The notes: generated by a model from the letters alone, not told the origin. A stretch of 64,000 bases of DNA from Alphaproteobacteria bacterium (GCA_017308135.1 JAFKFM010000014.1:65507-129506); one strand, 5' to 3'; shown: positions 6,770 through 36,764, numbered from the stretch's first letter. Numbers and translations are program-made.

Positions 6770-7464
<695 letters not shown>

Positions 7465-18824: not shown

Positions 18825-18865
18825 TTGACGCCTTCTCACTTGGCATTATAGCTTTGCATCAAAGT
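18825..18865 (+). promoter_or_regulatory. Putative sigma70-type promoter (TTGACG-16-TATAGC) with overlapping dyad GCTTTG-cat-CAAAGT, upstream of the HpaB-like gene
   Basis: Read from the sequence. About 50 nt upstream of the ATG at 18916. Confidence 0.35.
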
Positions 18866-18915
18866 TAATTGAGTGGCCGCCATGCCGGTGAGCATTGCAG
18901 GAATTGGGGAGCATC

Positions 18916-20412
18916 ATGATCAAGAACGGCGAACAGCATATTGCCAGCCTGCGTGACGGCCGCGAGGTTTACCTCGATGGTGAACTGGTCAAGGACGTTA
19001 CCACCCATCCAGCCTATCGCGGAGCAGTCGCTTCAATCGGACGTATGTTCGACTTCCAGAGCGCGCCGGAAAATCGCGATCTCATGACGTTCGAGACTGA
19101 GACCGGAACCCGCGCCAACCGGATATGGGAATTGCCGGGCAGCTACGACGCGCTGGTCAAGCGCCGTAAGGGCCTTGAGGCATGGACCGAACTTCATGCG
19201 GGATTCATGGGCCGCGCGCCGGACCATGTCGCATCCTGCATCGCGGGAATGTTCATGGGGCTCGATGTGTTCGAGGCTTATAATCCCGAACGTGCAAAGG
19301 CTCTTGCTGACTATTATCGCCATGCGCGCGACAACGATCTCTATCTGACTTACGTCATCATCAATCCGCAGGCTGACCGCTCCAAGAGTGCGGCCCAGCA
19401 GGCTGATCCGTTCCTGTCGGCGGGCGTTGTTTCGCGTGAGGCAGATGGTCTGATCATCCGCGGGGCCAAGATGCTGGCCACCGGCGGAATCATGGCCAAC
19501 GAAGTTTTCGTCACCTGCATTCAACCGCTGCAGCCCGGCGACGAGAAGTACGCGGTGTCCTTCGCCATTCCGATGAATACCAAGGGTCTGAAGATCCTGT
19601 CGCGCAAATCCTATGAAGCCGGCGCGAATTCGGTATTCGATAGCCCGCTCTCCAGCCGCTTCGACGAAAACGACGCGGTGCTCTATTTCGATGACGTGAA
19701 GGTGCCGTGGGATCGCGTGTTCATCGATCAGGACATCGCGATGTGCCAGAAGCAGTTCCATGCGACGCCGGCGCATGTATATCAGAACTATCAGGCAATG
19801 ATCCGGCTGACGGTCAAGCTGCGCTTTCTTACCGGTGTCGCGCATCGCACTGCCGAGATCAATGGCATCGTCGGCTTCCCGCAGGTTCGGGAAATGCTCG
19901 GTCAGCTTGCCGCCGAAGTCTCGATGGTGGAAGCTTTCGTGCTCGGCATGGAAGCCAAGGGCACGCAGCGCGGTCAATACTTCACGCCAGACCGGGCGCT
20001 CCTGTACGGAGCACAGGTGCTGACCCAGCAGCTCTATGCAAAGGTCATCAACACACTGCGCGAACTCGCCGGCGGCGGCATGATCATGCTGCCTTCCTCG
20101 GTGAAGGATTTCGCAAATCCCGAACTGGCGGCGTTGATCGGAAAGACTCAGCAGTCGCCGGCGGCGAATGCCGTCGACAAGGTGAAGTTCTACAAGCTTG
20201 CCTGGGATGCGGTGGGGTCCGAGTTTGCATCGCGGCATTCGCAATACGAAATGTTCTTTGCCGGCGCGACCTTCGTCACCAAGGGCCATGCGTTCCGCAC
20301 CTTCGATTGGGCGCAGTCGACTGCATTGCTCGACAAGATGCTGTCCAGCTACGATCTGGCGGATGAACTCACAACCGGTGGAAAATCTCCGGCGTCCCGC
20401 GCGGTCGCTTGA
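18916..20412 (+). CDS. 4-hydroxyphenylacetate 3-monooxygenase (HpaB) family flavin-dependent monooxygenase, oxygenase component
   Basis: N-terminal LRDGREVYLDGELVKDVTTHPAYRGAVASIGRMFDF matches the HpaB family. 499 aa. GGGGAG RBS. Confidence 0.85.
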   Translation: MIKNGEQHIASLRDGREVYLDGELVKDVTTHPAYRGAVASIGRMFDFQSAPENRDLMTFETETGTRANRIWELPGSYDALVKRRKGLEAWTELHAGFMGRAPDHVASCIAGMFMGLDVFEAYNPERAKALADYYRHARDNDLYLTYVIINPQADRSKSAAQQADPFLSAGVVSREADGLIIRGAKMLATGGIMANEVFVTCIQPLQPGDEKYAVSFAIPMNTKGLKILSRKSYEAGANSVFDSPLSSRFDENDAVLYFDDVKVPWDRVFIDQDIAMCQKQFHATPAHVYQNYQAMIRLTVKLRFLTGVAHRTAEINGIVGFPQVREMLGQLAAEVSMVEAFVLGMEAKGTQRGQYFTPDRALLYGAQVLTQQLYAKVINTLRELAGGGMIMLPSSVKDFANPELAALIGKTQQSPAANAVDKVKFYKLAWDAVGSEFASRHSQYEMFFAGATFVTKGHAFRTFDWAQSTALLDKMLSSYDLADELTTGGKSPASRAVA

Positions 20413-20816
20413 TCGGATAGACCGAAGGTCGGCCATTATCGCCGACACCCTTCACGATGGATTGCGCGCTGTCGATCCGTCGTGATGTTGCGTGCTGAGG
20501 CTATATTTCTCGGCGTTCGGTAAGCGGAGCTTAGCCAAGATATCGAGCAGCCAGATGGTGCGGCGGATGATGATCCGCTGCGGCAGACGTTTACACAGCC
20601 GAACCATTCGTCCATGAATATAAAGGTGCATCTGTTCACCGCCGATGTCGTCATCGCCGGTTCAGATGCGGGGAGGGGTCGGCTGACCGAATGCCTACGA
20701 AGCTACTTGCCATGCGGCAAATGCGGCCCATGGGGCCTGCACGGGAAGCCATGTGTTGACGGAGGCGCGCCATTTCGATCCAAGCTGAAACCGAGCCGCG
20801 GCGACTGATCGTCGGC

Positions 20817-21380
20817 ATGACCGGAGCGTCCGGTGCCATCTATGGCGTCCGGCTTCTTCAGCTATTGCAGCAGACTGACGTGGAAACACATCTTGTGCTG
20901 AGCAAGTCGGCCAAGATCACCTTGGCGCAGGAACTGGATATCAAGGTTTCCGATGTCCTCGCGCTCGCCGATGTCGTCCATCAGGCGGAGAATATCGGAG
21001 CCACGATTTCCAGCGGATCGTTCGCCACCATGGGCATGATAATCGCGCCGTGCTCCATGCGCAGTATGGCGGAGATATCGTCTGGCGCAACATCTTCACT
21101 GGTGACGCGCGCCGCCGACGTCGTGTTGAAGGAGCGCCGTCGTCTGGTTTTGATGGTCCGCGAAACACCGCTGCATCTCGGTCATCTCAGATCGATGGTT
21201 GCGGTGACTGAAATGGGCGGGATCGTCTATCCGCCGGTTCCGGCCTTCTATGCCAAGCCGTCAAGCATCGATCAGATGGTCGATCAGACGTTGGGGCGCG
21301 TGCTGGATCTTTTCGCGATCAAGACGGATGTCGTCCGTCGCTGGGAAGGGCTTACTCCGAGTAAAAGTCGAGATCAGTGA
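20817..21380 (+). CDS. UbiX/PAD1-family flavin prenyltransferase (prFMN synthase). The true start is probably upstream (ATT at 20772).
   Basis: GMTGASGAIYGVRLLQ...CSMRSMAEISSG. The conserved RRLIVG strand is encoded in frame immediately upstream of the first ATG. Confidence 0.8.
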   Translation: MTGASGAIYGVRLLQLLQQTDVETHLVLSKSAKITLAQELDIKVSDVLALADVVHQAENIGATISSGSFATMGMIIAPCSMRSMAEISSGATSSLVTRAADVVLKERRRLVLMVRETPLHLGHLRSMVAVTEMGGIVYPPVPAFYAKPSSIDQMVDQTLGRVLDLFAIKTDVVRRWEGLTPSKSRDQ

Positions 21381-21418: not shown

Positions 21419-21949
21419 ATGGCAAAGGAAGGCGAGAATTTCTCGAACGAAAGCTGGTCTTTCGCGTTGCGTCTCTATGCGGAGTCCGGCGTGGCCGAAG
21501 CGTGCCTTCGTTTGCAATCTATTGCGGGCGTCGATGTGATGATGCTTCTTGCTGTCTTATTCGCTGCGTCGCAAAAGAATATCTCATTGTCCTTTGAAGA
21601 TGTGAAAGCACTGGACGGTGTTTGCCGTCCATGGCGCGAGCAGGTCGTTCATCCTCTGCGTGCGCTGCGAACCGCTTTGAAGTCTGGACCGGCGCCCGCT
21701 CCAACATCTGAAACCGACCAGCTGCGTTCGCGCATCAAGGCCGATGAGCTTCAGGCTGAGCAGATCGAGAACGATCTGCTCGGCAACTGGCTGCAGCATA
21801 AAACACGGGCACCGGCCGCACTCTCGCGACATCAGGTCCGCGGCATTCTGGCAGACGTTGTGCGGTGCTTTGGTGCCGATTCCTCAACGATCGAAGTCTC
21901 TGCTGAGGTCGATGTCATTCTCGGCGCGACCGCCAGGCTCTCTGCATAG
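21419..21949 (+). CDS. Conserved hypothetical protein, DUF2390/TIGR02444-like (recognised from memory only)
   Basis: N-terminal SWSFALRLYAESGVAEACLRLQSIAGVDVMMLLAVLFAA pattern. Lies between the UbiX-like and UbiD-like genes. Confidence 0.55.
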   Translation: MAKEGENFSNESWSFALRLYAESGVAEACLRLQSIAGVDVMMLLAVLFAASQKNISLSFEDVKALDGVCRPWREQVVHPLRALRTALKSGPAPAPTSETDQLRSRIKADELQAEQIENDLLGNWLQHKTRAPAALSRHQVRGILADVVRCFGADSSTIEVSAEVDVILGATARLSA

Positions 21950-21996
21950 TGCGGTGCACGCTGTTAATTTAATCAGCGAATGCTTGTTTCGTGTTC

Positions 21997-22024
21997 TTGA
22001 CTAGCTTTGTAATTTAACTATCGT
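21997..22024 (+). promoter_or_regulatory. Putative promoter/operator TTGACTAGCTTTGTAATTTAACTATCGT (-35 TTGACT, 16-nt spacer, -10 TATCGT) upstream of the UbiD-like gene
   Basis: A near-identical 24-nt motif recurs at 29115-29142. Confidence 0.45.
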
Positions 22025-22057
22025 CCAATGCAATTTCTTGTGGGGACAGGACCTGAT

Positions 22058-23482
22058 ATGGCGCAGCCGCAAATTCTCGATACTCGTTTTCGTTCGGCGC
22101 TGGCGCGTCTTGCCAAGAAAGATCGCATCCTGACGTTTGAAAAGACGGCGGACCCCCATCTTGAAATCGCAGCGGTCTTGAAGAAGCACGATGGCCGCCA
22201 AACGATGCTGTTTCCCGCAGTCAAGGGATACGATGTTCCGCTGGTCGGTAATCTTCTCAGCTCGAAGGAGAATTGCGAGGCTGCGTTTGATCTCGATTTT
22301 CGTGGCATCCGCGGATTGGTTCAGCGCGCGCTCGGCGGACCATTGCCGCCGGAACTCGTCACGAATGCGCCTTCGCAGGAGGTTGTTCTTAAAACCGGAT
22401 TCGATGTCACCAAGCTGCTGCCTGCGCTTTTCCACGCGCCGGGTGATGCAGGGCGCTACGTCACCGCGGGGATCGTGATCGTCAAAGATCCTGAGACGGG
22501 TATCTACAACGCATCCTATCATCGCTTGCAGTTGCTGGGGCCGGATCGCTTCGCAATCAAGCTCGACTTCGGCCGGCATCTTCGTCTGGCATTCGAACGC
22601 GCCAAAGCGCGCGGCAAGTCGCTGCCGGTCGCCGTCTGTATCGGTACGGATCTTGCGCTGCATTTTACCGCCGCCACGATGGGCTCGCAGATGCCTGAGA
22701 CGGCTGACGAGCTTGCAGTTGCCGGTGGCCTTGCGGGGCGGCCGTTGACGGTTGCGAAGGCCGTGTCGCAAGACATGATCGTTCCGGCCGAATGCGAGTT
22801 CGTGCTCGAAGGCGAAATCTCGATTGACGAGGTTGCTCCGGAAGGACCGTTCGGCGAGTTCGTCGGGTTCGCCGCTCCCGCGGCCGATGCCCCCATTCTG
22901 AAGGTCACGGCGGTGACCCACCGCATGCGGCCGATCTATCACGTCATCAACGGCTTCGGCCGCGAGACGATTATCCTGCGCAAATACGTGTTGGAAGCGA
23001 GCCTTCTCAAGGTATTGCAGGCTGCAATCCCGATCGTGACGGATGTTGAGATGACGTCGGGCGGTTTGCACCGTTTTCATGCAATCATTCAGGTCGAGAA
23101 GCGGAGCCGTCAGCACAATGGATTGCAGCGCAACGCCATTCTCGCGGCGTTCGGCGCGCTGAAGGATTTGGATCTGATCACTGTGGTCGATCACGATATC
23201 GATATTCGCGACCCGATCGATGTCGAGTACGCGATCGCAACACGCATGGAAGCGTCGAGCGATCTATTCCTCATTCCCGGCGCGCGTGGGCACGAATATG
23301 TTCGTGTCAGCAAGGATGGTATCCGCACCAAACTCGGTATCGACGCAACGGTGCCTTTTGAGGATCAGGACAAGTTCCGGCGTGTTGAATTTGCCAAAAC
23401 CGATATCGAGCTTGGCGATTTTACACCGGGTGCCAATACGGCGATCCAGTCGCTCGGGATCGACGGATCGAACATCGCATAA
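22058..23482 (+). CDS. UbiD-family prFMN-dependent (de)carboxylase
   Basis: The N-terminal region and the APEGPFGEFVGF motif match UbiD-family decarboxylases. 474 aa. Confidence 0.85.
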   Translation: MAQPQILDTRFRSALARLAKKDRILTFEKTADPHLEIAAVLKKHDGRQTMLFPAVKGYDVPLVGNLLSSKENCEAAFDLDFRGIRGLVQRALGGPLPPELVTNAPSQEVVLKTGFDVTKLLPALFHAPGDAGRYVTAGIVIVKDPETGIYNASYHRLQLLGPDRFAIKLDFGRHLRLAFERAKARGKSLPVAVCIGTDLALHFTAATMGSQMPETADELAVAGGLAGRPLTVAKAVSQDMIVPAECEFVLEGEISIDEVAPEGPFGEFVGFAAPAADAPILKVTAVTHRMRPIYHVINGFGRETIILRKYVLEASLLKVLQAAIPIVTDVEMTSGGLHRFHAIIQVEKRSRQHNGLQRNAILAAFGALKDLDLITVVDHDIDIRDPIDVEYAIATRMEASSDLFLIPGARGHEYVRVSKDGIRTKLGIDATVPFEDQDKFRRVEFAKTDIELGDFTPGANTAIQSLGIDGSNIA

Positions 23483-23535
23483 ATTCACGTTGCATAAGGC
23501 CGTCTCACTAAACCTCTCAACGATCGGAAACTCCA

Positions 23536-24504
23536 ATGAAGCGACTTCTTATAGCAGCCTTGCTTGTGGGCACCGGACTAAGCGTTTCTACTGCTTCCGC
23601 GCAGGAATGGCCGAGCAAGTCGGCGATCAAGCTCGTCGTGCCTTATGCTCCCGGAGGATATACCGACTCCGTCGGTCGTATTACTGCGCGTTTTCTTGAA
23701 AAAGAACTCGGGCAGACGGTGATCGTCGACAACCGTCCGGGTGGAGGCGGCATCGTCGGTTCTGATCTGGTGTCGAAGTCCCCCGGCGACGGCTATACGC
23801 TTTGCATCTGCAGCGTGGGCGCAATCTCGATTGCTCCGGTGGCGCAGACCACGTCCTACGATCCGGTTAAAAGCTTCAAGCCGATCAGCATCGTCAGCAC
23901 CATCCCGCAGATGGTAATCGTCAATCCGTCGCTGCCGATCAACTCGATGGACGATCTGGTTAAGTATGCCAAGGCCAATCCCGGAAAGCTCACCTTCGGC
24001 TCGAGCGGCGCCGGTGGCCTGATGTATTACTCGGTCGCGCTGTTCGATAGCCGCGTCGGTACAAAAATGACTCATGTGCCGTTCAAGGGCGGAGCGCCGG
24101 CAACTGCCGCCGTGGTCGCGGGCGAGGTGAACCTGTCTTTCACCAACATGACGGATGCCCTGCCGCAGCTCGAGGCGAAAACCGTTCGTGCTCTCGCAGT
24201 GACGTCGGCAGGCCGTAGCGAGTTCGCCCCGAAGGTTCCGACTGTCGCCGAGACTGTCCTGCCTGGATATGCGGTTGAGTCTTGGAACGGCGTCATGGCA
24301 CCGGCCTCGACGCCCGATGCGATTGTCACAAAGGTTTCCGATGCCCTCAAGAAGATGGCAGCCGATCCCGAGGTGAAGAAGCAGATGTCGGTCGCAGGCG
24401 CGTCGACCGTGTTCACGACGCCAGCCGAATATAGCGCGCAGATCGCCAAGGAAGTCGATCAGTGGCGGGCGCTGCTCAAGGAAATCTCGGAAAAGAAGAC
24501 CTGA
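23536..24504 (+). CDS. tctC: Tripartite tricarboxylate transporter substrate-binding protein (TctC/Bug family)
   Basis: Signal peptide. VVPYAPGGYTDSVGRI...DNRPGGGG motifs typical of Bug/TctC. Confidence 0.85.
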   Translation: MKRLLIAALLVGTGLSVSTASAQEWPSKSAIKLVVPYAPGGYTDSVGRITARFLEKELGQTVIVDNRPGGGGIVGSDLVSKSPGDGYTLCICSVGAISIAPVAQTTSYDPVKSFKPISIVSTIPQMVIVNPSLPINSMDDLVKYAKANPGKLTFGSSGAGGLMYYSVALFDSRVGTKMTHVPFKGGAPATAAVVAGEVNLSFTNMTDALPQLEAKTVRALAVTSAGRSEFAPKVPTVAETVLPGYAVESWNGVMAPASTPDAIVTKVSDALKKMAADPEVKKQMSVAGASTVFTTPAEYSAQIAKEVDQWRALLKEISEKKT

Positions 24505-24579
24505 GCTTCAGCGATCGGCGGGCGGTGAGCTAGGTCTCACCGCTCGCCTTCTGTCTTCCGGCGGCATGGGAGCTTGCCA

Positions 24580-25029
24580 ATGAAATCTATCGCTCGGCGT
24601 GGAAATACCGACGTCTATTCGGGATTTCTTCTCGTTGCCATCTCGACTGTGGCGCTGCTGTACATCCGCACTCTGACGATCGGTACCGTGCTCGACATGG
24701 GGCCGGGCTATTTTCCTCTCGGTCTTGCCTTGATTTTGCTGGGCATGGGACTTGTCCTTGTGGTCAAGGGCCTTGCCGCGACGGGCTCGCCGGTCGGCAC
24801 CATTCATCTCCGCCCGCTCTTCTTTATCCTGCTGTCCTTCGCGGTGTTCGGCCTGCTGATCGAACGTGCTGGCCTCGTGATTGCGGTTCTGATGCAGGTC
24901 GCCATCGCGCATTTCGCCTCGCGTGAAAGCACCTGGCTTGCGAGCGTCATTACGGGCATTGCACTGGCGGTCGCGTCTTCCGTCGTCTTTGTCTGGCTTC
25001 TCAAGATTCCGGTGAACGTGCTGCCATGA
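24580..25029 (+). CDS. tctB: Tripartite tricarboxylate transporter small permease (TctB family)
   Basis: About 150 aa, four hydrophobic segments. Located between the tctC and tctA genes. Confidence 0.7.
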   Translation: MKSIARRGNTDVYSGFLLVAISTVALLYIRTLTIGTVLDMGPGYFPLGLALILLGMGLVLVVKGLAATGSPVGTIHLRPLFFILLSFAVFGLLIERAGLVIAVLMQVAIAHFASRESTWLASVITGIALAVASSVVFVWLLKIPVNVLP

Positions 25030-26528
25030 CGGATATCTTCGCTGCTCTCGGCCACGGTTTCTCTGTCGCGGCCACGCCTCTCAACCTGTTGTTCTGTTTG
25101 ATCGGCGCCATTTGCGGCACGCTGATCGGCGTGTTGCCGGGACTCGGACCGGTGGCAACGATTTCTTTGCTTCTGCCGGCGACCTATGCACTCGATCCGG
25201 TGAGTGCGATCATCATGCTCGCGGGCATTTATTACGGTGCGCAGTATGGCGGTTCGACCACGGCGATCCTTGTCAACATTCCGGGCGAGTCCACGTCGGT
25301 GGTGACGGCTATCGATGGTTACAAGATGGCGCAGCAGGGGCGGGCGGGCGAGGCGCTTGCCATCGCCGCCATCGGCTCTTTCATCGCGGGCTGTTTTGGA
25401 ACCGTGATTATTGCGCTGCTCGGACCGCCGTTGGCCGTGATGACACAGAAATTTGCGTCGCCTGATTATTTTTCGCTGATGGTGCTGGGTCTCGTCTCCG
25501 CCGTTGTGCTCGCCAACGGATCGGCTTTTCATGCGATCGCGATGATCTTCCTCGGCCTGCTGCTTGGCATGGTCGGCATGGACCTCAATACCGGCGAAGC
25601 GCGCATGACGTTCGGTCTGATCGAATTGTCGGATGGCATCAACTTCGTTGCACTGGTGATGGGTCTGTTCGGTGTTGCCGAGGTCATTGCCAATCTGGAA
25701 GGCGTTTCAACGCGGATTGTCAATCACTCCAAGATCAACAGCATCTGGCCGTCGTTCAAGGTACTGCGTGGCGCCTGGGGCGCAGTCACGCGCGGGACCC
25801 TGTTGGGGACGTTATTCGGCATTCTGCCGGGTGGCGGCGCAACCATTGCATCTTTTTCCTCCTATGCGCTCGAGAAGCGCGTTTCGAAGACGCCGGAGCG
25901 CTTCGGCAATGGAGCTATTGAGGGCGTCGCGGGGCCGGAGTCGGCCAACAATGCGGCAGCACAGACGTCCTTCGTTCCGCTCCTGACCATGGGCATTCCG
26001 ACCAGCGCAACCATGGCGCTTCTGGTCGGTGCGCTGACCTTGCACGGCATTGCTCCGGGGCCGACCATCATTTCGCGCCAGCCGGATCTGTTCTGGGGGC
26101 TGATCGCAAGCATGTTCATCGGCAATGCGATGCTGGTGATCATCAACCTGCCGATGATTGGAATCTGGGTCCGTCTGCTCAACGTGCCTTACCGGATCCT
26201 TTATCTTGTCATCGTCGTGATTTGCGCGATTGGCGTTTTCTCGGTCAACAACTCGAGTTTCGACATTTACATGACGGTCGGGTTCACGGCGCTCGGCTAC
26301 ATCCTGCGCAAGCTGAATGCCGAACCGGCGCCATTGCTGATGGGATTTGTCCTCGGTCCGATGCTGGAGGAGAATTTCCGCCGCAGCCTGATCACGGCGC
26401 ATGGGGATCCGACCGTGTTTCTGCAGAGGCCGATTAGCCTCGTTCTGCTGCTGTTGTCACTGGGATTGCTGATTTCGATCCTGATGCCTTCCATCAGCAA
26501 GCGCCGCCAGGAAGTCTTTCAGGAGTGA
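25026..26528 (+). CDS. tctA: Tripartite tricarboxylate transporter large permease (TctA family)
   Basis: 500-aa polytopic membrane protein. ATGA overlap with the tctB gene. Confidence 0.85.
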   Translation: MTDIFAALGHGFSVAATPLNLLFCLIGAICGTLIGVLPGLGPVATISLLLPATYALDPVSAIIMLAGIYYGAQYGGSTTAILVNIPGESTSVVTAIDGYKMAQQGRAGEALAIAAIGSFIAGCFGTVIIALLGPPLAVMTQKFASPDYFSLMVLGLVSAVVLANGSAFHAIAMIFLGLLLGMVGMDLNTGEARMTFGLIELSDGINFVALVMGLFGVAEVIANLEGVSTRIVNHSKINSIWPSFKVLRGAWGAVTRGTLLGTLFGILPGGGATIASFSSYALEKRVSKTPERFGNGAIEGVAGPESANNAAAQTSFVPLLTMGIPTSATMALLVGALTLHGIAPGPTIISRQPDLFWGLIASMFIGNAMLVIINLPMIGIWVRLLNVPYRILYLVIVVICAIGVFSVNNSSFDIYMTVGFTALGYILRKLNAEPAPLLMGFVLGPMLEENFRRSLITAHGDPTVFLQRPISLVLLLLSLGLLISILMPSISKRRQEVFQE

Positions 26529-26573
26529 CGACGGCTCGTTGTCGCGCCTCCAATTGAGATCGGGACTAACAAC

Positions 26574-28250
26574 ATGAACAAGCATCAATCGGCGCAGGCC
26601 GTGACCGGAGAAGCCGGCTTGCGCAATGGCGGGCAAATTCTGGTGTCTGCGTTGCGGCGCAATGGAGCCGATCGCATGTTCGGCGTGCCTGGTGAAAGCG
26701 CACTGCCGATTTTCGACGCTGTTTATGAGCCTGATGCTGGTGTCCGGTTCATTATGTGCCGGCACGAGGCGACGGCGTCCCACATGGCGGAGGCTGACGG
26801 TAAGCTCTCCAAGCGGCCCGGTATTTGCGTGGTAAGCCGTGGCCCAGGCGCGATGCAGGCGGCGATAGGTTTACATACGGCATGGCAGGATTCCACGCCG
26901 ATGATCTTGATTGTCGGCCAGGTGCCGCGCAGCCATCGCGGCCGCGAAGCCTTTCAGGAAATGGATTATAGCCGGACGTTCGATGATATGACGAAGTGGG
27001 CGGTGGAGATCGACTCCGTCGATCGCATTCCCGAGATTGTCAGCCGTGCTTTCCATGTCGCGATGCAGGGGCGCCCGGGACCAGTGGTCTTGTCGATACC
27101 CGAAGACGTGCTGAGCGCGACAAGCAGTGTCGCCGATGCTGCGCCGGCGACGACCATTGATGCCGCGCCGTCGGCCCAACAGATGGCCGATGTACGTCGG
27201 CTTCTGCAGCAGGCGCAGCGTCCATTGGTTATTGTTGGGAATCTCGGTTGGAATGTAGAGGCGGCTTCCAGGTTCCGCACCTTCGTGGAGCAAAACAATC
27301 TGCCGGTTGTCGCGGGATTCCGGTCGCAGGACGTGCTCGACAATCGCTCCGAACAATATATCGGCGACATCAGCCTCGGTTGCAGCCGGCCGCTGATGGC
27401 GCGGGTAAAGACGGCGGACCTGCTTCTTGTGATCGGTGATCGTCTCGGCGACGTCACCACCAATCATTATTCGCTGTTCGATGTGCCGACGCCGAAGCAG
27501 GCACTGATTCATGTTTTCCCCGGGCCGGAAGAACTCGGGCGAGTCTATGTGCCGACACTCGGCATTCCTGCCAATTCCTCTCGCTTTGCCGAAGCTCTCG
27601 CGCAGCTCGATCCTCTCGATCATTCGTCCTGGGATGCGTGGCGGGCGGAATCGCGTCTGGCCTATGTCGAGTATCAGGCGCCGCGACCGGATTTTCCGCC
27701 TTTCGATCTTGCGAAGGTGATTGATCACCTCAACACCGCATTACCTGACGATGCGATCGTAACAAACGGAGCCGGCAATTACACGGTCTGGCTGCACCGT
27801 TATTATCGCTATCGCGGCCTTGGCACCCAGATCGCTCCGAAGTCCGGCACCATGGGGTATGGACTGCCCGCCGCGGTCGCCGCGCAACTGCGCCATCCCG
27901 AACGCCGGGTTGTCTGTCTCGCCGGGGATGGCTGTTTCATGATGGCCTCGCAGGAATTCGCAACCGTCGTTCAGCAGAAGCTCCCGGTCGTCATCATCAT
28001 CGTCAACAACACGATGTACGGCTCGATCCGCATGCATCAGGAATTGAGCTTTCCGAACCGCCCCAGCGGGACGGATCTGCTGAATCCGGATTTTGCAGCG
28101 CTGGCGAAATCCTATGGTGCGTATGGCGAAGCCATCGACGCACATGACGATTTCCCGGCGGCCTTTTCGCGTGCGGTTAACGCGGGTGGCCCCGCGATCA
28201 TCGAACTTCGCGTCAACCGCAAGCAACTGACTCCGGATCGCTCGCTCTGA
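26574..28250 (+). CDS. Thiamine pyrophosphate-dependent enzyme, acetolactate synthase/benzoylformate decarboxylase superfamily
   Basis: N-terminal TPP pyrimidine-binding domain. C-terminal GDGCFMM...NN TPP-binding motif. 558 aa. Confidence 0.8.
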   Translation: MNKHQSAQAVTGEAGLRNGGQILVSALRRNGADRMFGVPGESALPIFDAVYEPDAGVRFIMCRHEATASHMAEADGKLSKRPGICVVSRGPGAMQAAIGLHTAWQDSTPMILIVGQVPRSHRGREAFQEMDYSRTFDDMTKWAVEIDSVDRIPEIVSRAFHVAMQGRPGPVVLSIPEDVLSATSSVADAAPATTIDAAPSAQQMADVRRLLQQAQRPLVIVGNLGWNVEAASRFRTFVEQNNLPVVAGFRSQDVLDNRSEQYIGDISLGCSRPLMARVKTADLLLVIGDRLGDVTTNHYSLFDVPTPKQALIHVFPGPEELGRVYVPTLGIPANSSRFAEALAQLDPLDHSSWDAWRAESRLAYVEYQAPRPDFPPFDLAKVIDHLNTALPDDAIVTNGAGNYTVWLHRYYRYRGLGTQIAPKSGTMGYGLPAAVAAQLRHPERRVVCLAGDGCFMMASQEFATVVQQKLPVVIIIVNNTMYGSIRMHQELSFPNRPSGTDLLNPDFAALAKSYGAYGEAIDAHDDFPAAFSRAVNAGGPAIIELRVNRKQLTPDRSL

Positions 28251-28346
28251 GGAGGTCATAAGCAGGCCGGGAACACGGATCAGCAGGTATGACGCAGCCA
28301 AGGGAGCGCGAATATTGCGTTGTCCCTCGTTGAATTAATACCTACA

Positions 28347-28383
28347 GTTAGCCAGTAAGCTGAATTGATTCCAGTCGAACTAT
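28347..28383 (+). promoter_or_regulatory. Half-sites related to the island operator (AGTTAGCCAGTAAGCT and AACTATC) immediately upstream of the MarR gene RBS
   Basis: Matches to AGTTAGCTAGTA (29131-29142) and AACTATC (22016-22022). Confidence 0.3.
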
Positions 28384-28398
28384 CAGGAGTTGCCCCGC

Positions 28399-28977
28399 GT
28401 GCCGGGATCGACGGTGACAAAACCAGAACTGATGCCCGGAGGGGATGATGCGGTTTTTCGCACCTTCATTCACGACTTTCTGGCATTTAGCGCGCGTGTC
28501 GACCAATGCCGGGTTGGATTCGGCGAGCGTCTCGGAATTTCAGGCATCGCATATACGACCCTGATATCGATCGCCTACCTGCAGGGTGAGAAGGGAGTCG
28601 GCGTAAGCCGCGTTGCCGAGCACCTTCATCTGTCGGGCGCATTTGTCACCATTGAAGTGTCGAAGCTGGTCGAAGCCGATCTCGTGAAGAAGCGGGTCAA
28701 CGAAAGCGACCGCCGTCGCGTCTTGCTGACGGTGACGCCCAAAGCGAAGCGGCTGCTCGATGAGCTTGCCAGCATTCAGGCTCCCGTCAACGACGCTCTT
28801 TTCGGCTGTCTCAGCGCCGCCGAGTTTGCGCTGTTGTCATCGATGCTGGCGCGCCTCGTCCCTTGCGGCGACAAGGCGGTTTCGATGCTCGCTTTCACGT
28901 CGAAGTGGTCGAAGGCGCCAGCTGTGAAGTCTGCGAATTCCATAGAGAAGCGCAAAAGCAAAAGGCGTGCAGCCTGA
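28399..28977 (+). CDS. MarR-family transcriptional regulator
   Basis: Winged helix: LISIAYLQGEKGVGVSRVAEHLHLSGAFVTIEVSKLVEADLVKKR. AGGAG RBS. GTG start proposed; the ORF is open from 28390. Confidence 0.7.
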   Translation: MPGSTVTKPELMPGGDDAVFRTFIHDFLAFSARVDQCRVGFGERLGISGIAYTTLISIAYLQGEKGVGVSRVAEHLHLSGAFVTIEVSKLVEADLVKKRVNESDRRRVLLTVTPKAKRLLDELASIQAPVNDALFGCLSAAEFALLSSMLARLVPCGDKAVSMLAFTSKWSKAPAVKSANSIEKRKSKRRAA

Positions 28978-29114
28978 TCGGCTGCAAGACGTCCTTCCTC
29001 CAATCCAATTGTTGACCGACCAGCGGTTGATCGCGTTTGCACGCTGCAGAGTGGCTGATGTTCGCTGTGCTGCAGCACCGAAATTTTTCCTCGCGGGGAC
29101 GAGTTGCGTGCTGC

Positions 29115-29142
29115 TTGACTAGCTTTGTAAGTTAGCTAGTAT
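29115..29142 (+). promoter_or_regulatory. Putative promoter/operator TTGACTAGCTTTGTAAGTTAGCTAGTAT with a perfect 7-9-7 inverted repeat (ACTAGCT...AGCTAGT) between -35 and -10
   Basis: Read from the sequence. Lies upstream of the aldehyde dehydrogenase gene with a ~165-nt leader. Confidence 0.5.
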
Positions 29143-29306: not shown

Positions 29307-30776
29307 ATGATGCAAAACTTCGACGTGATTTCGTGTTTCATCGGCGGCAAGAGCGAGCAGGGCGGCAACTATTTCGAGAAGCGCTATCCGGCGACCGGAG
29401 AGGTCATTGCGAAGGTGGTCGAGTCGGACCAGGCGCAGGTTGATCGTGCTGTCGATGCTGCGCGCAAAGCGCTGTCAGGTCCCTGGAAGAACACCACCAT
29501 GCTCGAGCGTGCTGCGTTCCTGGAACGCCTTGCAAACAAGCTCGATGAGCACATCGATGAACTCGTCGCCGAAGAAATCAAGGATACCGGGAAGCCCATA
29601 ACCGCGACCCGTAATGTCGAAATTCCGCGCGCTATCGCGAATTTCCGGGCGTTCGCGGCGATTGCCCGCGAAGATCATCTCAAGCCATTTCAGACGAATA
29701 TGCTCGCGGGAGGCGTCGCGGACAACATGGTGCTGCGACAGCCAATCGGAGTCATCGGGATTGTCGCGCCGTGGAATCTCCCGCTGCTGCTTCTGACCTG
29801 GAAGGTTGCGCCAGCGCTTGTCTGCGGCAACACCATTGTCGTGAAGCCTTCGGAGCATTCACCGCGCACCGCTGTTCTGCTGGCTAAAATCGCGCATGCG
29901 GTCGGGCTGCCTGATGGCGTGCTCAACGTCGTGCACGGTCACGGCGCGGATGCGGCCGGAAGTTTCCTCGTGTCGCATTCCGATGTCGGTGCGATCACGT
30001 TCACGGGCGAAACACGAACGGGCGAGGTAATCATGAAGGCTGCGGCCATGGGTCCGCGCCCGGTTTCGCTTGAACTTGGTGGAAAGAACGCCGCGGTCAT
30101 TTTCGATGATGCTGACTTCGATGCCGCAGCTGCGGGTACGGTCCGCTCCATGTTCGACAATTGCGGGCAGGTGTGTCTGACGACCGAGCGCATCTTTGTG
30201 CATCGCAAGATATTTGCGCCGTTTGTCGAGCGTCTTGCGGATCTCACGAAGAAGCTTCAGCCGGGCGACCCGCACCTTGCGGTGACGACCTTGGGGCCGG
30301 CGATCAGTGATATTCAACGCGACAAGGTTCTGGGCTTTTACCGCCGGGCCGAGCAGGAAGGCGCCCAGGTCGTCACCGGCGGAGGCGCGTTGCAGATGCC
30401 TGCGTCTTTCGCGGATGGCTATTGGGTCGCGCCGACGATCTGGACCGGCCTGCCTGACGATGCGGAAGTCTGTCAAAGAGAGGTGTTCGGCCCCTGCGGA
30501 CATATTTCGGTTTTCGATGATGACGACGAAGTCGTGAAGCGGGTCAACAATTCGAGTTACGGTCTCGCATCGACGGTGTGGACGAAAAACATGGAGCGGG
30601 CACGCAAGGTCGCCACGGAAATCGAAACCGGGACGGTATGGGTGAACTGCTGGCGGGTGCGCGATGAGCGGGCGGCTTTCGGCGGCTTCAAGCGTTCAGG
30701 CATCGGCCGGGAAGGCGGGACGTGGTCGCTCGATTTCTACTCCGAATTGAAGACGGTTTGCGCTTATACGTCGTGA
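29307..30776 (+). CDS. NAD(P)-dependent aldehyde dehydrogenase, hydroxymuconic-semialdehyde dehydrogenase-like
   Basis: ALDH motifs ELGGKNAAVIF and catalytic Cys in FDNCGQVC. 489 aa. Confidence 0.85.
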   Translation: MMQNFDVISCFIGGKSEQGGNYFEKRYPATGEVIAKVVESDQAQVDRAVDAARKALSGPWKNTTMLERAAFLERLANKLDEHIDELVAEEIKDTGKPITATRNVEIPRAIANFRAFAAIAREDHLKPFQTNMLAGGVADNMVLRQPIGVIGIVAPWNLPLLLLTWKVAPALVCGNTIVVKPSEHSPRTAVLLAKIAHAVGLPDGVLNVVHGHGADAAGSFLVSHSDVGAITFTGETRTGEVIMKAAAMGPRPVSLELGGKNAAVIFDDADFDAAAAGTVRSMFDNCGQVCLTTERIFVHRKIFAPFVERLADLTKKLQPGDPHLAVTTLGPAISDIQRDKVLGFYRRAEQEGAQVVTGGGALQMPASFADGYWVAPTIWTGLPDDAEVCQREVFGPCGHISVFDDDDEVVKRVNNSSYGLASTVWTKNMERARKVATEIETGTVWVNCWRVRDERAAFGGFKRSGIGREGGTWSLDFYSELKTVCAYTS

Positions 30777-30895: not shown

Positions 30896-30928
30896 TTGAC
30901 TGCCGTCATATTGGCTTTATATTAAAGC
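30896..30928 (+). promoter_or_regulatory. Putative promoter TTGACT-17-TATATT with perfect dyad GCTTTA-tat-TAAAGC overlapping the -10
   Basis: Read from the sequence. About 50 nt upstream of the flavin reductase GTG start. Confidence 0.45.
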
Positions 30929-30977
30929 TAATATTGCAAATGAACATGGGGCTGGTTTCGTCAATGAGGTTGCGTCC

Positions 30978-31496
30978 GTGCAGGATCGTGCTTTCAGGCG
31001 TACGTTAGGGGAATTTGCGACCGGCGTTGCCGTGGTGACGGCGCGCGGCAGGGGCGATGATCTGGTCGGAATGACGATGAGTTCGTTCAATTCCGTTTCC
31101 GTCGATCCTCCGCTTGTCCTCTTTAGCGTCGATCGAAAGGCTCTCAGCCTGCCGGCGATGCAGGAAGCCAAAGGCTTCGCAATCAACGTGCTGGCGCGCG
31201 AGCAGGAAAACGTTTCCAATCAATTCGCGCGGGCTCTCTCCAACAAATGGGATCAGGTGAAGACGAGCGTCGGTCATGCCGAAGCTCCGCTGATTTCCGG
31301 CGCGCTAGCTCATTTTGAGTGCGAACCCTATGCGACTTACGATGGCGGCGACCACGTTATTTTCGTGGTGCGCGTCGTTCGCTATTCATCGCATCCGTCC
31401 TCGCCCGCGCCGCTGGTTTTCTTCCGTGGCCGCTATCGCGATTTGGTTGATGAAGCCGAGCGGACACCCGAGTGGCCACTCCCCATTCATTACTGA
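30978..31496 (+). CDS. NAD(P)H-flavin reductase (HpaC/flavin reductase-like domain)
   Basis: FRRTLGEFATGVAVVTA...GMTMSSFNSVSVDPPLVLFSV matches flavin reductase domains. Confidence 0.8.
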   Translation: MQDRAFRRTLGEFATGVAVVTARGRGDDLVGMTMSSFNSVSVDPPLVLFSVDRKALSLPAMQEAKGFAINVLAREQENVSNQFARALSNKWDQVKTSVGHAEAPLISGALAHFECEPYATYDGGDHVIFVVRVVRYSSHPSSPAPLVFFRGRYRDLVDEAERTPEWPLPIHY

Positions 31497-31708
31497 CATG
31501 CCGGCAGTGGAGATTCCTGTTTTGATCGGAAAGACCCGACCATCGCCAAGGCTGCTTCGATCGCGCAGACGTTCTGCTCGCTCGGCCGGGGCGCGGTTCG
31601 TTCCGAATTCGGTTCGCGTTACCGGCCGACGCTTGATTTCTATGGCCCGAGCGGCATTGTTGCCGCGCAGGGCAGGACCGCCTGATTTATTCTTCAAGGA
31701 GAACGACA

Positions 31709-32089
31709 ATGCCAGTGAACAAGAAGCATGACGAATTCCACACGATTGACCTGAAGAGCGGTTGGGAAACCCCGGCAGGCTATCCGGCAGGCATCCAGCA
31801 AAAGATTCTGTCCGGTTCTCTTGATGAGACAAACAACCGCGGCACACGGACGCGGCTGCTTCGCTTTGAACCGGGCGTCTACACAACTGCGCCGTTCTCC
31901 CACGACTATTGGGAAGAAGTGTATCTCATCTCCGGCGATCTGATTGTTGGCAATGATGCGAACGGCGAAGGTGGCGAGAGCTTTCAGCCGAACACCTACG
32001 CCTGCCGCCCGCCGCATGCGAAGCATGGACCGTTCAAGTCCATCAATGGCTGCATGCTCGTTGAAATCCATTATTTCGATCCGGTCTGA
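31709..32089 (+). CDS. Cupin-domain protein
   Basis: 126 aa. The two-His cupin motif region YWEEVYLISGDL...HAKHGP. Confidence 0.65.
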   Translation: MPVNKKHDEFHTIDLKSGWETPAGYPAGIQQKILSGSLDETNNRGTRTRLLRFEPGVYTTAPFSHDYWEEVYLISGDLIVGNDANGEGGESFQPNTYACRPPHAKHGPFKSINGCMLVEIHYFDPV

Positions 32090-32097
32090 GGACAGGG

Positions 32098-32124
32098 CGG
32101 CCTTCACTTGTTCGCGAAGGCCGC
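32098..32124 (+). terminator. 9-bp GC-rich hairpin (GCGGCCTTC...GAAGGCCGC) followed by TTTCACTTT. Terminator or attenuator between the cupin gene and the transporter operon.
   Basis: Inverted repeat read from the sequence. Confidence 0.4.
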
Positions 32125-32145
32125 TTTCACTTTAAGGAGACAATC

Positions 32146-33441
32146 ATGAAGTTGAGGACGGCACTTTCCGCACTTGCGCTCGTCGGTAGCCTGGGAGCGA
32201 CCATGCCTGCGGTCGCTCAGACCAAGCCGGATTCGCTGGGGCTGGGTATTTTCACGTTTACGTCCGGACCGGCCGCTGCTTACGGGATGCCCGGCAAGAA
32301 CGCTGCGGACCTGATGATCGAGCAGATCAACGCAGCCGGCGGCATCGGCGGCGTGAAGATCGTGCCGACCTATGTCGATGAAGCCCAAGGCGCCCAAGGC
32401 GTCATCGCGGAGTATCGCCGCCTGTCTGGCGAGGCGAGCAATCAGGTGATGATTGCCGCGTTGTCGAGTGCGAACTGTCTCGCGCTGGCGCCTCTCGCCG
32501 AGCAGCTTCAGGTGCCGACGGTGGGCTGGAATTGCGATACGCATCATCTTCTGCTGGATGGCAAGAGCAAGTATGTGTTCCGTCCGAACGGCAACACCGT
32601 TCCCGAATTCGTCGCCTATGCGGTTTACCTTCTGGCCCGTAAGCCGGATGTAAAGACGGTTGCGATCATCAATCCGGACTATGCGTTCGGACATGATGCG
32701 GCGACGATCTTCAAGGCCGCGCTGAAAGCCCTGCGCCCGGATATCCAGGTGGTGGCCGAACTCTTCCCGAAGATGGGCTCGCCGAACTACCAGACCGAAA
32801 TTTCGCGCCTGACCACGGCGCGGCCAGATGTCGTGTTCTCCAACCTTTGGGGTGCGGATCTCGAAAACTTCGTGCGGCAAGCGCAGCCGCGCGGTCTTTT
32901 CAGCTCCAGCCAAGTTGTCCTTGCGCTCGGCGAAACTGTGCTGCAGCGCGTGCCGCTGCCGGAGGGTGTGATCGTCGGCGTGCTCGGCGATGGCTGGTGG
33001 ATGTCGCCAGACGCTGCGGCGAACGCGCAGACAAAGAAGTTTGTCGACGCGTATAAGGCTAAGTATGGCGAGTATCCGGTGTTCCCGTCGATCAAGATGG
33101 CGAATACGCTGCTCTACGTGAAGGCAGCCTATGAAGCCGCGATGAAGAAGAACGGTGGTAAGTGGCCGAGCCGCGCCGAACTCGTCGATGCGATGCGCGG
33201 AAGCAAGGTGCCGACGCTCACCGGCACCACTGTGACGCGTGCGGACAATGATGGCATGGTCGATCAGATCGTCGGCGTGACGGTGAAGTCGCCTAACCAG
33301 AGCTTCCCGGTGATCGGCGAGATGGTGCGTTACAAAGGCGATGCGCTGATGCCGAAGGAAGGACAGGATCCGATCGGCTGGATCTCGACCTTGACGCCGG
33401 CTTTTGCTGCTTCGCTTCCGAAGCCCGGTAGCTACAAGTAA
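32146..33441 (+). CDS. ABC transporter substrate-binding protein, LivK-like family, with signal peptide
   Basis: Signal peptide ALALVGSLGATMPAVA. Type-I periplasmic binding fold. Confidence 0.85.
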   Translation: MKLRTALSALALVGSLGATMPAVAQTKPDSLGLGIFTFTSGPAAAYGMPGKNAADLMIEQINAAGGIGGVKIVPTYVDEAQGAQGVIAEYRRLSGEASNQVMIAALSSANCLALAPLAEQLQVPTVGWNCDTHHLLLDGKSKYVFRPNGNTVPEFVAYAVYLLARKPDVKTVAIINPDYAFGHDAATIFKAALKALRPDIQVVAELFPKMGSPNYQTEISRLTTARPDVVFSNLWGADLENFVRQAQPRGLFSSSQVVLALGETVLQRVPLPEGVIVGVLGDGWWMSPDAAANAQTKKFVDAYKAKYGEYPVFPSIKMANTLLYVKAAYEAAMKKNGGKWPSRAELVDAMRGSKVPTLTGTTVTRADNDGMVDQIVGVTVKSPNQSFPVIGEMVRYKGDALMPKEGQDPIGWISTLTPAFAASLPKPGSYK

Positions 33442-33494
33442 TCCGTGACAGCTGGCCTCCCGCGACATATCCGCGGGAGGCCGTGCCGGAAAGC

Positions 33495-34403
33495 ATGGAA
33501 CCGACGATGAATGCAATCATCCCGCTCGCGCTGGATACGCTCTCCAGTGCTGCCCTGATCTTCTTTGCGGCAGTGGGACTCACACTCGTTTTCAACGTGC
33601 TGCGCGTCCTCAATGTCGCTCATGGCAGCTTCTATTCGATCGGCGCTTATGTCGCGGCATCGCTCTGCCTCTTTATCGTTAGCCGGCAGCTCAATCCCTA
33701 TCTCTCGTTTGTTGTGTTGCTGTTCAGCGCCGTTCTCGTCGCCGTGATCCTCGGGCCGCTGATCGAAAGCACCTTGATCCGCTGGACTTACGGAAAGTCC
33801 GAGGCCGTTCAGATCCTTATCACCTTCGGCCTGTTTCTCATTCTCGAAGATGTGCAGCGTATCGTGTTCGGCGTTCAGTCTCTCTACGAGGATGCGCCCA
33901 TGCGGTTGATGGGCTCGACGGCCATCGGCGGCATTGTCTATCTCAACTATCAGATTGCCCTGATCGCGATGGCGGTCCTCGTCGTTATCGGTCTGCGCCT
34001 CCTCATCAAGCATACGCGATATGGCCGCCTGATTACCGCCGTGGTGTTCGATCGGGAGATGGCTCAATCGATCGGCATCGACACCAACAGGATTTTCATT
34101 CTTGCCTTTTCGCTCGGCGTTTTCTTGGCTGCCCTCGGCGGCGCGCTGGCGGTGCCGACCTCGGGGGTTGCCCCCGGATTGGGCGCAGACACGATGGTGC
34201 TGGCATTCGCTGTCGCGGCCATCGGTGGGCTTGGCCAGATCGAGGGGGCCGCGCTCGCTGCGCTGATCGTTGCGCTGGCGCGGGTACTTGCGATCTATTT
34301 TGCGCCCTCGCTGGATGCGGTTGCACCCTATGCCGCGATGCTGATCGTCCTGCTGGTTCGCCCCTATGGTCTATTTGGTTCGGTCACTGCGAGGCGGATA
34401 TGA
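33495..34403 (+). CDS. ABC transporter permease (LivH-like)
   Basis: LNVAHGSFYSIGAYV motif. Start uncertain (33483, 33495 or 33504). Confidence 0.8.
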   Translation: MEPTMNAIIPLALDTLSSAALIFFAAVGLTLVFNVLRVLNVAHGSFYSIGAYVAASLCLFIVSRQLNPYLSFVVLLFSAVLVAVILGPLIESTLIRWTYGKSEAVQILITFGLFLILEDVQRIVFGVQSLYEDAPMRLMGSTAIGGIVYLNYQIALIAMAVLVVIGLRLLIKHTRYGRLITAVVFDREMAQSIGIDTNRIFILAFSLGVFLAALGGALAVPTSGVAPGLGADTMVLAFAVAAIGGLGQIEGAALAALIVALARVLAIYFAPSLDAVAPYAAMLIVLLVRPYGLFGSVTARRI

Positions 34404-36069: not shown

Positions 36070-36764
36070 CATTGGCGCTCGACAAGGTCGCGGTCTCGAT
36101 CGAAGGCGTTCCGGTCCTGCGCGGCGTCTGCTGCGAGATTCTTGAACGCAAGACGACGATTCTGATCGGACGCAATGGCGCGGGAAAGACCACCACGCTG
36201 CGCGCGATCATGGGGCTTCTGCCGCTCGACGGCGGCGACATCCGCCTCGATGGCGAGGATTTGCGCAAGCAGCCGGCGCATTATCGCGCGCGTGCCGGAA
36301 TTGGCTACGCGCCCGAAGACCGTCGTCTGGTGCCGGAAATGAGCGTCGAGGAAAACATCCGTCTTCCGGGGCTTGCGCTTGATCTCGACAAGGCCGAGAT
36401 CAAGCTACGGCTCGAAGAGATCTATACATTTCTTCCGCAGTTGCATGTGATGCGGTTGCGGCCGGGCGGCGGGGTGTCCGGCGGTCAGGGCAAGATGGTG
36501 GCGCTGGGCCGCGCGCTGATGGTCGCACGCAAGGTGCTGCTGTTGGACGAACCGTTTCAGGGGCTTGCTCCGGCGCTCGCGCTGGACTATGCGCGGACGC
36601 TGGGCGAACTGCGCAAGCACCGCCCGGATCTGGCGCTGTTCATCACCGAATCCACGCCCGCGCTACTCAATGCGATCGCCGATCGCACCTTGCGGATCGA
36701 GCGCGGCGAAATTTCCGAACAATCCACGCATCTAGCGGAGAACGAGAATGCTTCTGCAGTTTGA
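36066..36764 (+). CDS. ABC transporter ATP-binding protein (LivF-like)
   Basis: GRNGAGKTTTL Walker A. Confidence 0.85.
   Translation: MTLALDKVAVSIEGVPVLRGVCCEILERKTTILIGRNGAGKTTTLRAIMGLLPLDGGDIRLDGEDLRKQPAHYRARAGIGYAPEDRRLVPEMSVEENIRLPGLALDLDKAEIKLRLEEIYTFLPQLHVMRLRPGGGVSGGQGKMVALGRALMVARKVLLLDEPFQGLAPALALDYARTLGELRKHRPDLALFITESTPALLNAIADRTLRIERGEISEQSTHLAENENASAV

Follow-up and report, generated by a model that had tools for sequence, protein, structure and literature searches.

Transcription factors of the MarR family bind palindromes of 16-20 bp as dimers, and their operators overlap the -35 and -10 boxes of promoters, repression being relieved by a small-molecule effector (PMC12016517). 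Here we describe a promoter element that may place a catabolic gene cluster under such control in a 64,000-nt stretch of alphaproteobacterial DNA (JAFKFM010000014.1:65507-129506; hereafter the window, to which all coordinates refer). The element was noticed in a first-pass annotation at 21997-22024, upstream of a ubiD-like gene, and at 29115-29142, upstream of an aldehyde dehydrogenase gene, and a MarR-type protein is encoded at 28399-28977. It is likely, in our assessment, that the element is a sigma-70-type promoter fused to the operator of this MarR, which would control four transcription units by ligand-released repression.

The locus resembles the MarR, OhrR and MexR systems in that a winged-helix regulator is encoded beside its putative targets and a palindromic operator lies on the -35 and -10 boxes, and fold and profile match as well; unlike the solved or named MarR systems, the MarR of the window has no close homolog among them. 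BhbR2 of Pigmentiphaga kullae H8 binds TTGATT-N5-AATCAA, a site of 17 bp, over the -35 box of a catabolic promoter (PMC12016517). The operator of the window element likewise abuts the -35 box; however, BhbR2 is an activator that its effector does not release, its half-sites are others, and the window element takes up the full spacer as far as the -10 box. In E. coli W the 4-hydroxyphenylacetate (hpa) genes are repressed by the MarR-type protein HpaR, an example of a MarR regulator tied to catabolism by an HpaB-type hydroxylase. The present cluster differs from the hpa system in having UbiD/UbiX and Tct genes instead of the hpa meta-cleavage genes, and its HpaB homolog falls below the equivalog cut-offs. 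PicR of Alcaligenes faecalis JQ135 is a MarR-type repressor that, by the title of the paper on it, reportedly 'multiply controls' transcription of the picolinic acid (pic) cluster. The likeness to PicR would be an analogy of logic, one MarR-type repressor for a cluster degrading a heteroaromatic acid, not membership of one system, and we take the operator sequence and the gene content (pic genes versus hpaB/ubiD/tct here) to be different.

The repeated element and its palindrome

The sequence CTTGACTAGCTTTGTAA-N-TTA, reported in the first-pass annotation as a near-identical repeat upstream of the ubiD and aldehyde dehydrogenase genes, occurs exactly twice in the window, at 21996-22016 and 29114-29134. 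A search with CTTGACTAGCTTTGTAANTTA matched only these two positions at up to 3 mismatches and had no match in any of 100 dinucleotide-preserving shuffles. The two copies are identical at 23 of 25 nt, and identity in the flanks is at a random level (9/40 upstream and 13/40 downstream); the likeness is thus sharply limited to the element. The annotation had counted 17 identical leading bases. Its quoted strings share 16, and 17 are reached only by counting the preceding C, which is present in its title; the 17 shared bases therefore cover the -35 hexamer together with the left half-site TAGCTTTG and some of the centre. As had been claimed, a consensus scan places TTGACT 16 nt from a -10-like hexamer in both copies (TTGACT-16-TATCGT in copy 1 and TTGACT-16-TAGTAT in copy 2), and the 7-9-7 dyad read in copy 2, ACTAGCT-N9-AGCTAGT, is perfect at 29118-29140. 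Copy 1 shows 3 mismatches to this dyad, and the outer AC/GT bases that make it perfect are not kept in the alignment of relatives' ubiD promoters (below). The conserved operator unit is a 19-bp palindrome of 8-3-8 form, TAGCTTTG-N3-CAAAGCTA, which has a common centre with the dyad at 29129. A literature search for the half-site TAGCTTTG/CAAAGCTA as a regulator site returned only unrelated primer-type matches.

Scanning the window with TAGCTTT-N5-AAAGCTA gave 4 sites at no more than 3 mismatches, where 0.66 were expected, and none of 100 shuffles reached four. The two sites of the annotation are among them, but the window has four operators, not two. They also hold the four top scores in 64 kb for a position weight matrix (PWM) built from the sites of relatives, for which shuffled sequence gave a maximum of 16.5 and a mean of 7.5. 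The four sites are as follows.

18849-18867, plus strand: O-hpaB, TAGCTTTGCATCAAAGTTA, 1 mismatch, PWM score 30.8, the best in the window
22002-22020, plus strand: O-ubiD, TAGCTTTGTAATTTAACTA, 3 mismatches, all in the right arm, PWM score 15.8, the weakest of the four
29120-29138, plus strand: O-aldh, TAGCTTTGTAAGTTAGCTA, 2 mismatches, PWM score 23.5
30912-30930, plus strand: O-flavRed, TGGCTTTATATTAAAGCTA, 1 mismatch, PWM score 30.1

Each of the four lies between genes, on the coding strand, and is centred 47-178 nt before a start codon; 4 of the 5 occurrences of the half-site TAGCTTT in the window fall inside them. O-hpaB and O-flavRed, which were not part of the annotation, are better palindromes than the two copies that it described. 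The hexamers that flank these two copies are listed below.

21997-22002, plus strand: -35 hexamer TTGACT of the ubiD promoter (consensus scan, 9/12 for TTGACT-16-TATCGT)
22019-22024, plus strand: -10-like hexamer TATCGT of the ubiD promoter, its first two bases being the last two of the operator
29115-29120, plus strand: -35 hexamer TTGACT of the aldehyde dehydrogenase promoter (consensus scan, 9/12 for TTGACT-16-TAGTAT)
29137-29142, plus strand: -10-like hexamer TAGTAT of the aldehyde dehydrogenase promoter (consensus scan)

Two geometries are evident. At the ubiD and aldehyde dehydrogenase genes the operator fills the spacer, such that the first T of the palindrome is the last base of the -35 hexamer and its last TA begins the -10 hexamer. 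At the hpaB and flavin reductase genes the palindrome is better and is shifted 10-18 bp downstream, onto the -10/+1 region: O-hpaB is 18 nt downstream of a -35-like TTGACG (18825-18830) with its centre 58 nt upstream of the hpaB ATG (18916), and O-flavRed overlaps the -10-like TATATT (30918-30923) of a promoter of the form TTGACT (30896-30901)-16-TATATT. The three TTGACT-16-hexamer promoters (ubiD, aldehyde dehydrogenase and flavin reductase) agree with the consensus at 9-10 of 12 positions, these being promoters predicted from consensus matches. The window operators are dyads that overlap the core promoter and are conserved beyond the hexamers. By score O-ubiD is marginal; its position, its 23/25 match to copy 2 and the like layout of the relatives' ubiD promoters make it credible.

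Conservation in relatives and linkage to marR

To place these sites in a comparative context, 80 genomic loci (L001-L080, 1.43 Mb) were collected by way of MarR orthologs. The flavin reductase, hpaB and cupin genes come immediately after marR in most of them, and in the stretch between marR and the flavin reductase gene a TTGAC(T/C) -35 box is closely followed by a perfect palindrome, ATAGCTTTG-N3-CAAAGCTAT. Over all 80 loci the palindrome is found 34 times in perfect form, 53 times with at most 1 mismatch and 80 times with at most 2, against 0, 0 and 0.4 for shuffled sequence. The vicinity of marR (500 bp) has 58 of the 80 sites (at most 2 mismatches), a density of 0.74 per kb compared with 0.017 per kb elsewhere (44-fold), and 48 of the 80 loci bear at least one site near marR. 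Sites away from marR nearly all precede further members of the cluster, namely flavin reductase, ubiD, ubiX, livK or DUF2848 genes. Beside marR orthologs of many genera the half-sites form a perfect or near-perfect palindrome, and among 13 flavin reductase/hpaB promoters from about 10 genera (including Rhodopseudomonas, Bradyrhizobium, Methylobacterium, Enterovirga, Xanthobacter, Azorhizobium and Agaricicola) it is the only invariant block. O-hpaB can be aligned to operators in the flavin reductase/hpaB promoters of other genera, and the position of O-flavRed is homologous to that of the conserved palindrome upstream of the relatives' flavin reductase gene.

The spacer-type operators were compared in an alignment of eight sequences, namely the two window sites and the ubiD promoters of L001, L002, L003, L013, L019 and L048. 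Here CTTGACTA.CTTT and TTA.CTA are invariant, as are the spacer bases AGCTTT … TTA[G/A]CTA, and the flanks diverge; the CTTGACT of the window ubiD promoter is likewise invariant in alignment with the relatives' ubiD promoters. All eight share an asymmetric right arm, TTAGCTA and not AAAGCTA, and the spacer-type operators of the window have lower PWM scores than the other two. A seventh ubiD-promoter fusion was found on the metagenome contig L086, which brings to seven the loci, besides the window, in which CTTGAC-TAGCTTT…TTAGCTA heads the ubiD operon. In the form CTTGAC-TA[G/C]CTTT the fusion is present in 16 loci, including nine flavin reductase promoters of Rhodopseudomonas, Bradyrhizobium and related genera, in which a second site, perfect or one mismatch off, follows 13 bp later. 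The random-level flanks of the window copies and the conservation across genera show that the core has been kept by selection and not merely inherited.

In Rhodopseudomonas (L008-L016), about 50-80 nt upstream of the flavin reductase gene, the operators overlap in tandem with three half-sites in a row: a TAGCTTT abuts the -35 box and is followed by a second palindrome, which suggests two dimers or cooperative binding. A candidate site at 22015-22033, overlapping copy 1 from 13 bp downstream, echoes this layout; it was rejected, since its PWM score of 11.7 is within the shuffle range.

We also searched in the reverse direction, without anchoring on marR, for the exact 21-mer ATAGCTTTGNNNCAAAGCTAT in metagenome contigs. 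It was found in 27 contigs. A marR homolog (42-85% identity) is encoded on 12 of them and mostly lies no more than about 150 bp from the site. These 12 belong to the 14 contigs whose GC content is at least 0.55; the other contigs are mostly AT-rich, and chance matches are therefore expected there. It is also evident that the sites follow marR into differing contexts, as in Xanthobacter, where marR occurs without the monooxygenase genes, and in Eremiobacterota. These comparisons back the original suggestion of a shared regulator site instead of two plain promoters, a site that is likely to be recognized by the adjacent MarR.

In relatives the gene order is marR-DUF2848/amidase-flavin reductase-hpaB-cupin-ubiD-tctCBA-(aldehyde dehydrogenase or thiamine-diphosphate enzyme). 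From the promoter to about 50 nt into the leader, the upstream region of the aldehyde dehydrogenase gene in the window is similar to the ubiD promoter and leader in L001, L002 and L013, the match including the TTAGCTA right arm of O-aldh and the T-rich leader. The gene order in relatives and this resemblance suggest that the cluster in the window was rearranged and a copy of the promoter/operator redeployed. No cupin or hpaB remnants that might explain the rearranged order were found. In the 404-bp gap between hpaB and ubiX (20413-20816), where relatives have a cupin gene, there is no fifth operator by PWM, no convincing promoter and no cupin remnant.

The MarR protein and the proposed switch

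The regulator gene and its product have the following features.

28399-28977, plus strand: marR, encoding the proposed repressor (192 aa), with a GTG start 9 nt after AGGAG

Homologs of the protein carry PF12802/PF01047, and a profile of 34 orthologs matches solved MarR proteins with E = 6e-9; membership of the MarR-family profiles is borderline for the window protein and clear for its family. As a single sequence its best match in the PDB has E = 1e-5, no solved or named MarR being closely homologous, and its sole NCBIfam match is BilQ (40 bits against a cut-off of 125). In an AlphaFold2 model (mean pLDDT 81.6) the order of helices (H) and strands (E), H18-44, H49-61, H69-76, H81-92, E96-100, E108-112, H114-134 and H140-170, is that of the MarR fold (a1-a2-a3-a4, the b1-b2 wing and a5-a6), and the best 50 PDB matches listed by Foldseek all belong to the MarR family (probability 0.98-1.00). 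Compared with solved or named MarR proteins, it carries some 45 additional residues at its N-terminus and a basic tail that is disordered. The residues predicted to form the recognition helix and the wing, H75-V87, D104, R106 and R107, are invariant in the 34 orthologs, in line with the invariant half-site that they may contact, and one cysteine, C156, is invariant as well.

Upstream of marR, a short conserved stretch, AATTGATTCC, is present in the window (28251-28398) and in L001, L002, L003 and L013, with ACCCACAGTTAGCC also in L013. It is kept although the preceding gene differs, it has no MarR-type palindrome, and it is possibly marR's own promoter region.

The sites, their conservation, their link to marR and the MarR fold of the protein are results of computation, and from them the following mechanism can be proposed. 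The centres of the half-sites are 11 bp apart in the 19-bp palindrome, about one helical turn, and this spacing would therefore suit the two winged helix-turn-helix domains of a MarR dimer in successive major grooves; the palindrome is statistically tied to marR, and its binding by a MarR homodimer is predicted. When inducer is absent, MarR dimers would sit on all four operators and block RNA polymerase, and a dimer bound at the ubiD or the aldehyde dehydrogenase promoter would mask the -35 and -10 hexamers alike. Binding of the pathway substrate or an intermediate to MarR would release it from the operators, and the whole cluster would be switched on. Ligand-released repression is proposed because overlap with the core promoter is the usual repression mode of the family (PMC12016517). 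The weaker ubiD operator may make the uptake/decarboxylase operon leakier and, by read-through, marR expression as well. In kind, this is a conventional MarR repressor/operator system of a catabolic cluster.

Several points weigh against this interpretation. The PWM score of O-ubiD, 15.8, is by itself not above the shuffle maximum of 16.5, and the right arm of copy 1 is degenerate, including a G-to-A change where 99% of sites have G. The hpaB promoter fails the consensus scan, having only the -35-like TTGACG and no confident -10. Neither in the window nor in close relatives does an operator immediately precede marR, such that any autoregulation of marR would need read-through from the ubiD promoter. 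The window MarR scores 26.1 bits against Pfam MarR_2, just under the 27-bit cut-off, and the Foldseek TM-scores are low (0.22-0.48 among the 50 matches listed), which is attributable to a monomer model with long terminal helices. Co-occurrence of site and gene is partly built in, since the loci were gathered through marR; this bias is reduced, not removed, by the within-locus density contrast and the reverse search. Many of the loci are phylogenetically related, and the counts are not independent events. Finally, the binding of MarR to the sites, repression as opposed to activation, the inducer and the transcription starts are all predicted features.

Could the palindrome be a true operator that is bound by another factor, either a LysR-type regulator of the window or one encoded elsewhere? 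We regard this as improbable. Two LysR genes are present (12806-13873 and 45754-46704), the binding of MarR to the sites is a prediction, and loci anchored on marR inflate the co-occurrence. But both LysR genes are outside the cluster at 18.4-38.8 kb, and sites that overlap the core promoter differ from LysR-type sites, which usually centre upstream, near -65 (PMC12016517). The sites do not fit the LysR-type pattern of a T-N11-A dyad near -65 with a divergent LysR gene, being at -35/-10 in a cluster that has no LysR gene. The 44-fold site density around marR, the sites that accompany marR into Xanthobacter and Eremiobacterota, and the palindrome-first search that recovers marR in 12 of the 14 GC-rich contigs all favor MarR itself. 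An equally small chance is given to MarR binding as an activator or dual regulator at the ubiD and aldehyde dehydrogenase promoters. BhbR2 offers a precedent, as a MarR-family activator on a 17-bp palindrome over a -35 box that its effector does not dissociate (PMC12016517), and the non-palindromic right arm of the eight aligned spacer-type operators could reflect a different binding mode; however, an operator that spans the whole spacer and touches both hexamers, and that covers -10/+1 at hpaB and flavin reductase, is typical of occlusion, and most characterised members of the family are repressors (PMC12016517).

The remaining two explanations dispense with a regulator or with transcription altogether. 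Two ordinary promoters, one copied from the other, would share their spacer by inheritance and not by selection. The resemblance of the aldehyde dehydrogenase promoter and leader to the ubiD promoter and leader of L001, L002 and L013 indicates that a copy was probably made during the rearrangement of the cluster, but the fall in identity between the core (23/25) and the flanks (9/40 and 13/40), the invariance of the same spacer bases in relatives with diverged flanks, and the recurrence of the half-sites at other distances from the -35 box, in other promoters of the cluster and in other genera, make plain copying very unlikely as the whole explanation. The annotation had itself named a dispersed repeat unrelated to transcription as the finding that would speak against its claim. 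Such a REP- or MITE-like element, for which nothing speaks beyond the fact that the motif is repeated, is effectively refuted: the copies in the window number only four, measure 19-25 bp and all precede, in the same orientation, genes of one functional cluster, no longer repeat family takes them in, and the sites are kept at orthologous promoter positions across genera.

Genes of the cluster and their possible pathway

The genes of the cluster, which spans 18.4-38.8 kb, are all on the plus strand.

18916-20412, plus strand: hpaB-type flavin monooxygenase, oxygenase component (Pfam HpaB_N/HpaB), target of O-hpaB
20817-21380, plus strand: ubiX, without an operator of its own
21419-21949, plus strand: DUF2390/TIGR02444 gene, without an operator of its own
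22058-23482, plus strand: ubiD, HmfF-like (Pfam), target of O-ubiD
23536-26528, plus strand: tctC-tctB-tctA (Pfam)
26574-28250, plus strand: thiamine-diphosphate enzyme (Pfam)
22058-28250, plus strand: operon of ubiD, tctC, tctB, tctA and the thiamine-diphosphate enzyme gene, followed by a 148-bp gap and marR
29307-30776, plus strand: aldehyde dehydrogenase (Pfam Aldedh), target of O-aldh
30978-31496, plus strand: flavin reductase (Pfam)
31709-32089, plus strand: small cupin (Pfam)
32146-36764, plus strand: livKHMGF-type ABC transporter (Pfam)
36748-37431, plus strand: DUF2848 (Pfam)
37476-38771, plus strand: amidase (Pfam)

The HpaB homolog matches 4-hydroxyphenylacetate 3-monooxygenases in the PDB (E = 5e-82) and is under both NCBIfam HpaB equivalog cut-offs (349.9 versus 480.2 bits and 305.9 versus 885.2 bits); ubiX and the DUF2390 gene may be cotranscribed with its gene. 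The ubiD operon has the same gene order behind the same promoter type in relatives. UbiD has 6H6V as its best solved homolog (E = 1.7e-93), and the TctC protein resembles terephthalate-binding proteins; the substrate is thus probably a (hetero)aromatic dicarboxylate. Against the NCBIfam model of 2-hydroxymuconic semialdehyde dehydrogenase the aldehyde dehydrogenase scores 670.7 bits, under the cut-off of 693.25 bits. The genes from flavin reductase to amidase (30978-38771) are the probable transcription unit or units downstream of O-flavRed. In relatives the flavin reductase, cupin, liv, DUF2848 and amidase genes adjoin marR, with operators of their own before the flavin reductase, livK and DUF2848 genes.

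Some further features of the region were observed. Between tctC and tctB (24517-24548) a strong hairpin with a 13-bp stem, of which 10 pairs are G-C, precedes a tail that contains T residues; within the operon it may serve as an attenuator, or as an mRNA stabiliser that raises expression of the binding protein over that of the membrane subunits. An inverted repeat, GCTGCAG-N20-CTGCAGC, followed by AAATTTTTCC, lies after the marR stop codon and before copy 2 (29043-29090); it holds a 12-bp perfect palindrome, GTGCTGCAGCAC (29067-29078), and in relatives CTGCCG-N7-CGGCAG stands at the corresponding position. This repeat is probably the marR terminator, and the folding z-score of the spacer between marR and the aldehyde dehydrogenase gene is only -1.05 despite the inverted repeat and T-run. 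Folding of the long aldehyde dehydrogenase leader is no stronger than that of shuffled sequence (z = 0.22), and an Rfam search for an RNA element in it, at a permissive threshold, gave only a chance match inside the thiamine-diphosphate enzyme gene. Elsewhere in the window are three more ABC transporter sets of the Liv type, the branched-chain amino acid family (2536-7464, 46770-51330 and 55691-60294), and a second TctC-like gene (53516-54550, minus strand). A 1085-aa adenylation/carrier/thioesterase protein resembling non-ribosomal peptide synthetases (40658-43915, minus strand), an allophanate-hydrolase-type amidase divergent from hpaB (16632-18428, minus strand) and a gene like the beta subunit of protocatechuate 3,4-dioxygenase (61043-61744) are together consistent with a catabolic region in a genome of Afipia/Bradyrhizobium-like type.

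A conserved gene set travels with marR in Alphaproteobacteria and Eremiobacterota (window 18400-38800; L001-L080). It comprises the hpaB-type monooxygenase, flavin reductase, small cupin, HmfF-like ubiD with ubiX, tctCBA, the thiamine-diphosphate enzyme, an enzyme like 2-hydroxymuconic-semialdehyde dehydrogenase, DUF2848 and the amidase, and it is apparently an uncharacterised catabolic set; literature searches for DUF2848 together with MarR, or for MarR, HpaB, flavin reductase, cupin and UbiD together, found none. In the pathway as proposed, TctCBA would import a (hetero)aromatic dicarboxylate, the HmfF-like UbiD would serve as its decarboxylase, and HpaB with the flavin reductase would carry out the hydroxylation. 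It is conceivable, and we offer this only tentatively as one joint proposal, that the four operators and marR define an uncharacterised pathway for such compounds, widespread in Alphaproteobacteria and present too in Eremiobacterota, which couples an HmfF-like prFMN decarboxylase (UbiD/UbiX) to an HpaB-type two-component monooxygenase and in which two operator grades order induction, perfect palindromes over -10/+1 serving the oxygenase genes and the asymmetric TAGCTTTG-N4-TTAGCTA in the -35/-10 spacer serving the uptake and decarboxylase operon. If so, uptake and decarboxylation could be induced ahead of the other steps or remain leakier, and the order of induction would be built into the two grades.

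The repressor/operator pair could become a biosensor once its ligand is known. The analysis gives a concrete candidate regulon for an unstudied MarR subfamily: its operator consensus is defined, and the sites number four in the window and about 80 in other genomes. The operator can also be used as a genomic marker, genes behind TAGCTTTG-N3-CAAAGCTA in these bacteria being candidate members of the pathway, which helps to assign function to a conserved uncharacterised gene set. The type of regulation is conventional, and the value of the finding is a defined motif and a pointer to an uncharacterised pathway.

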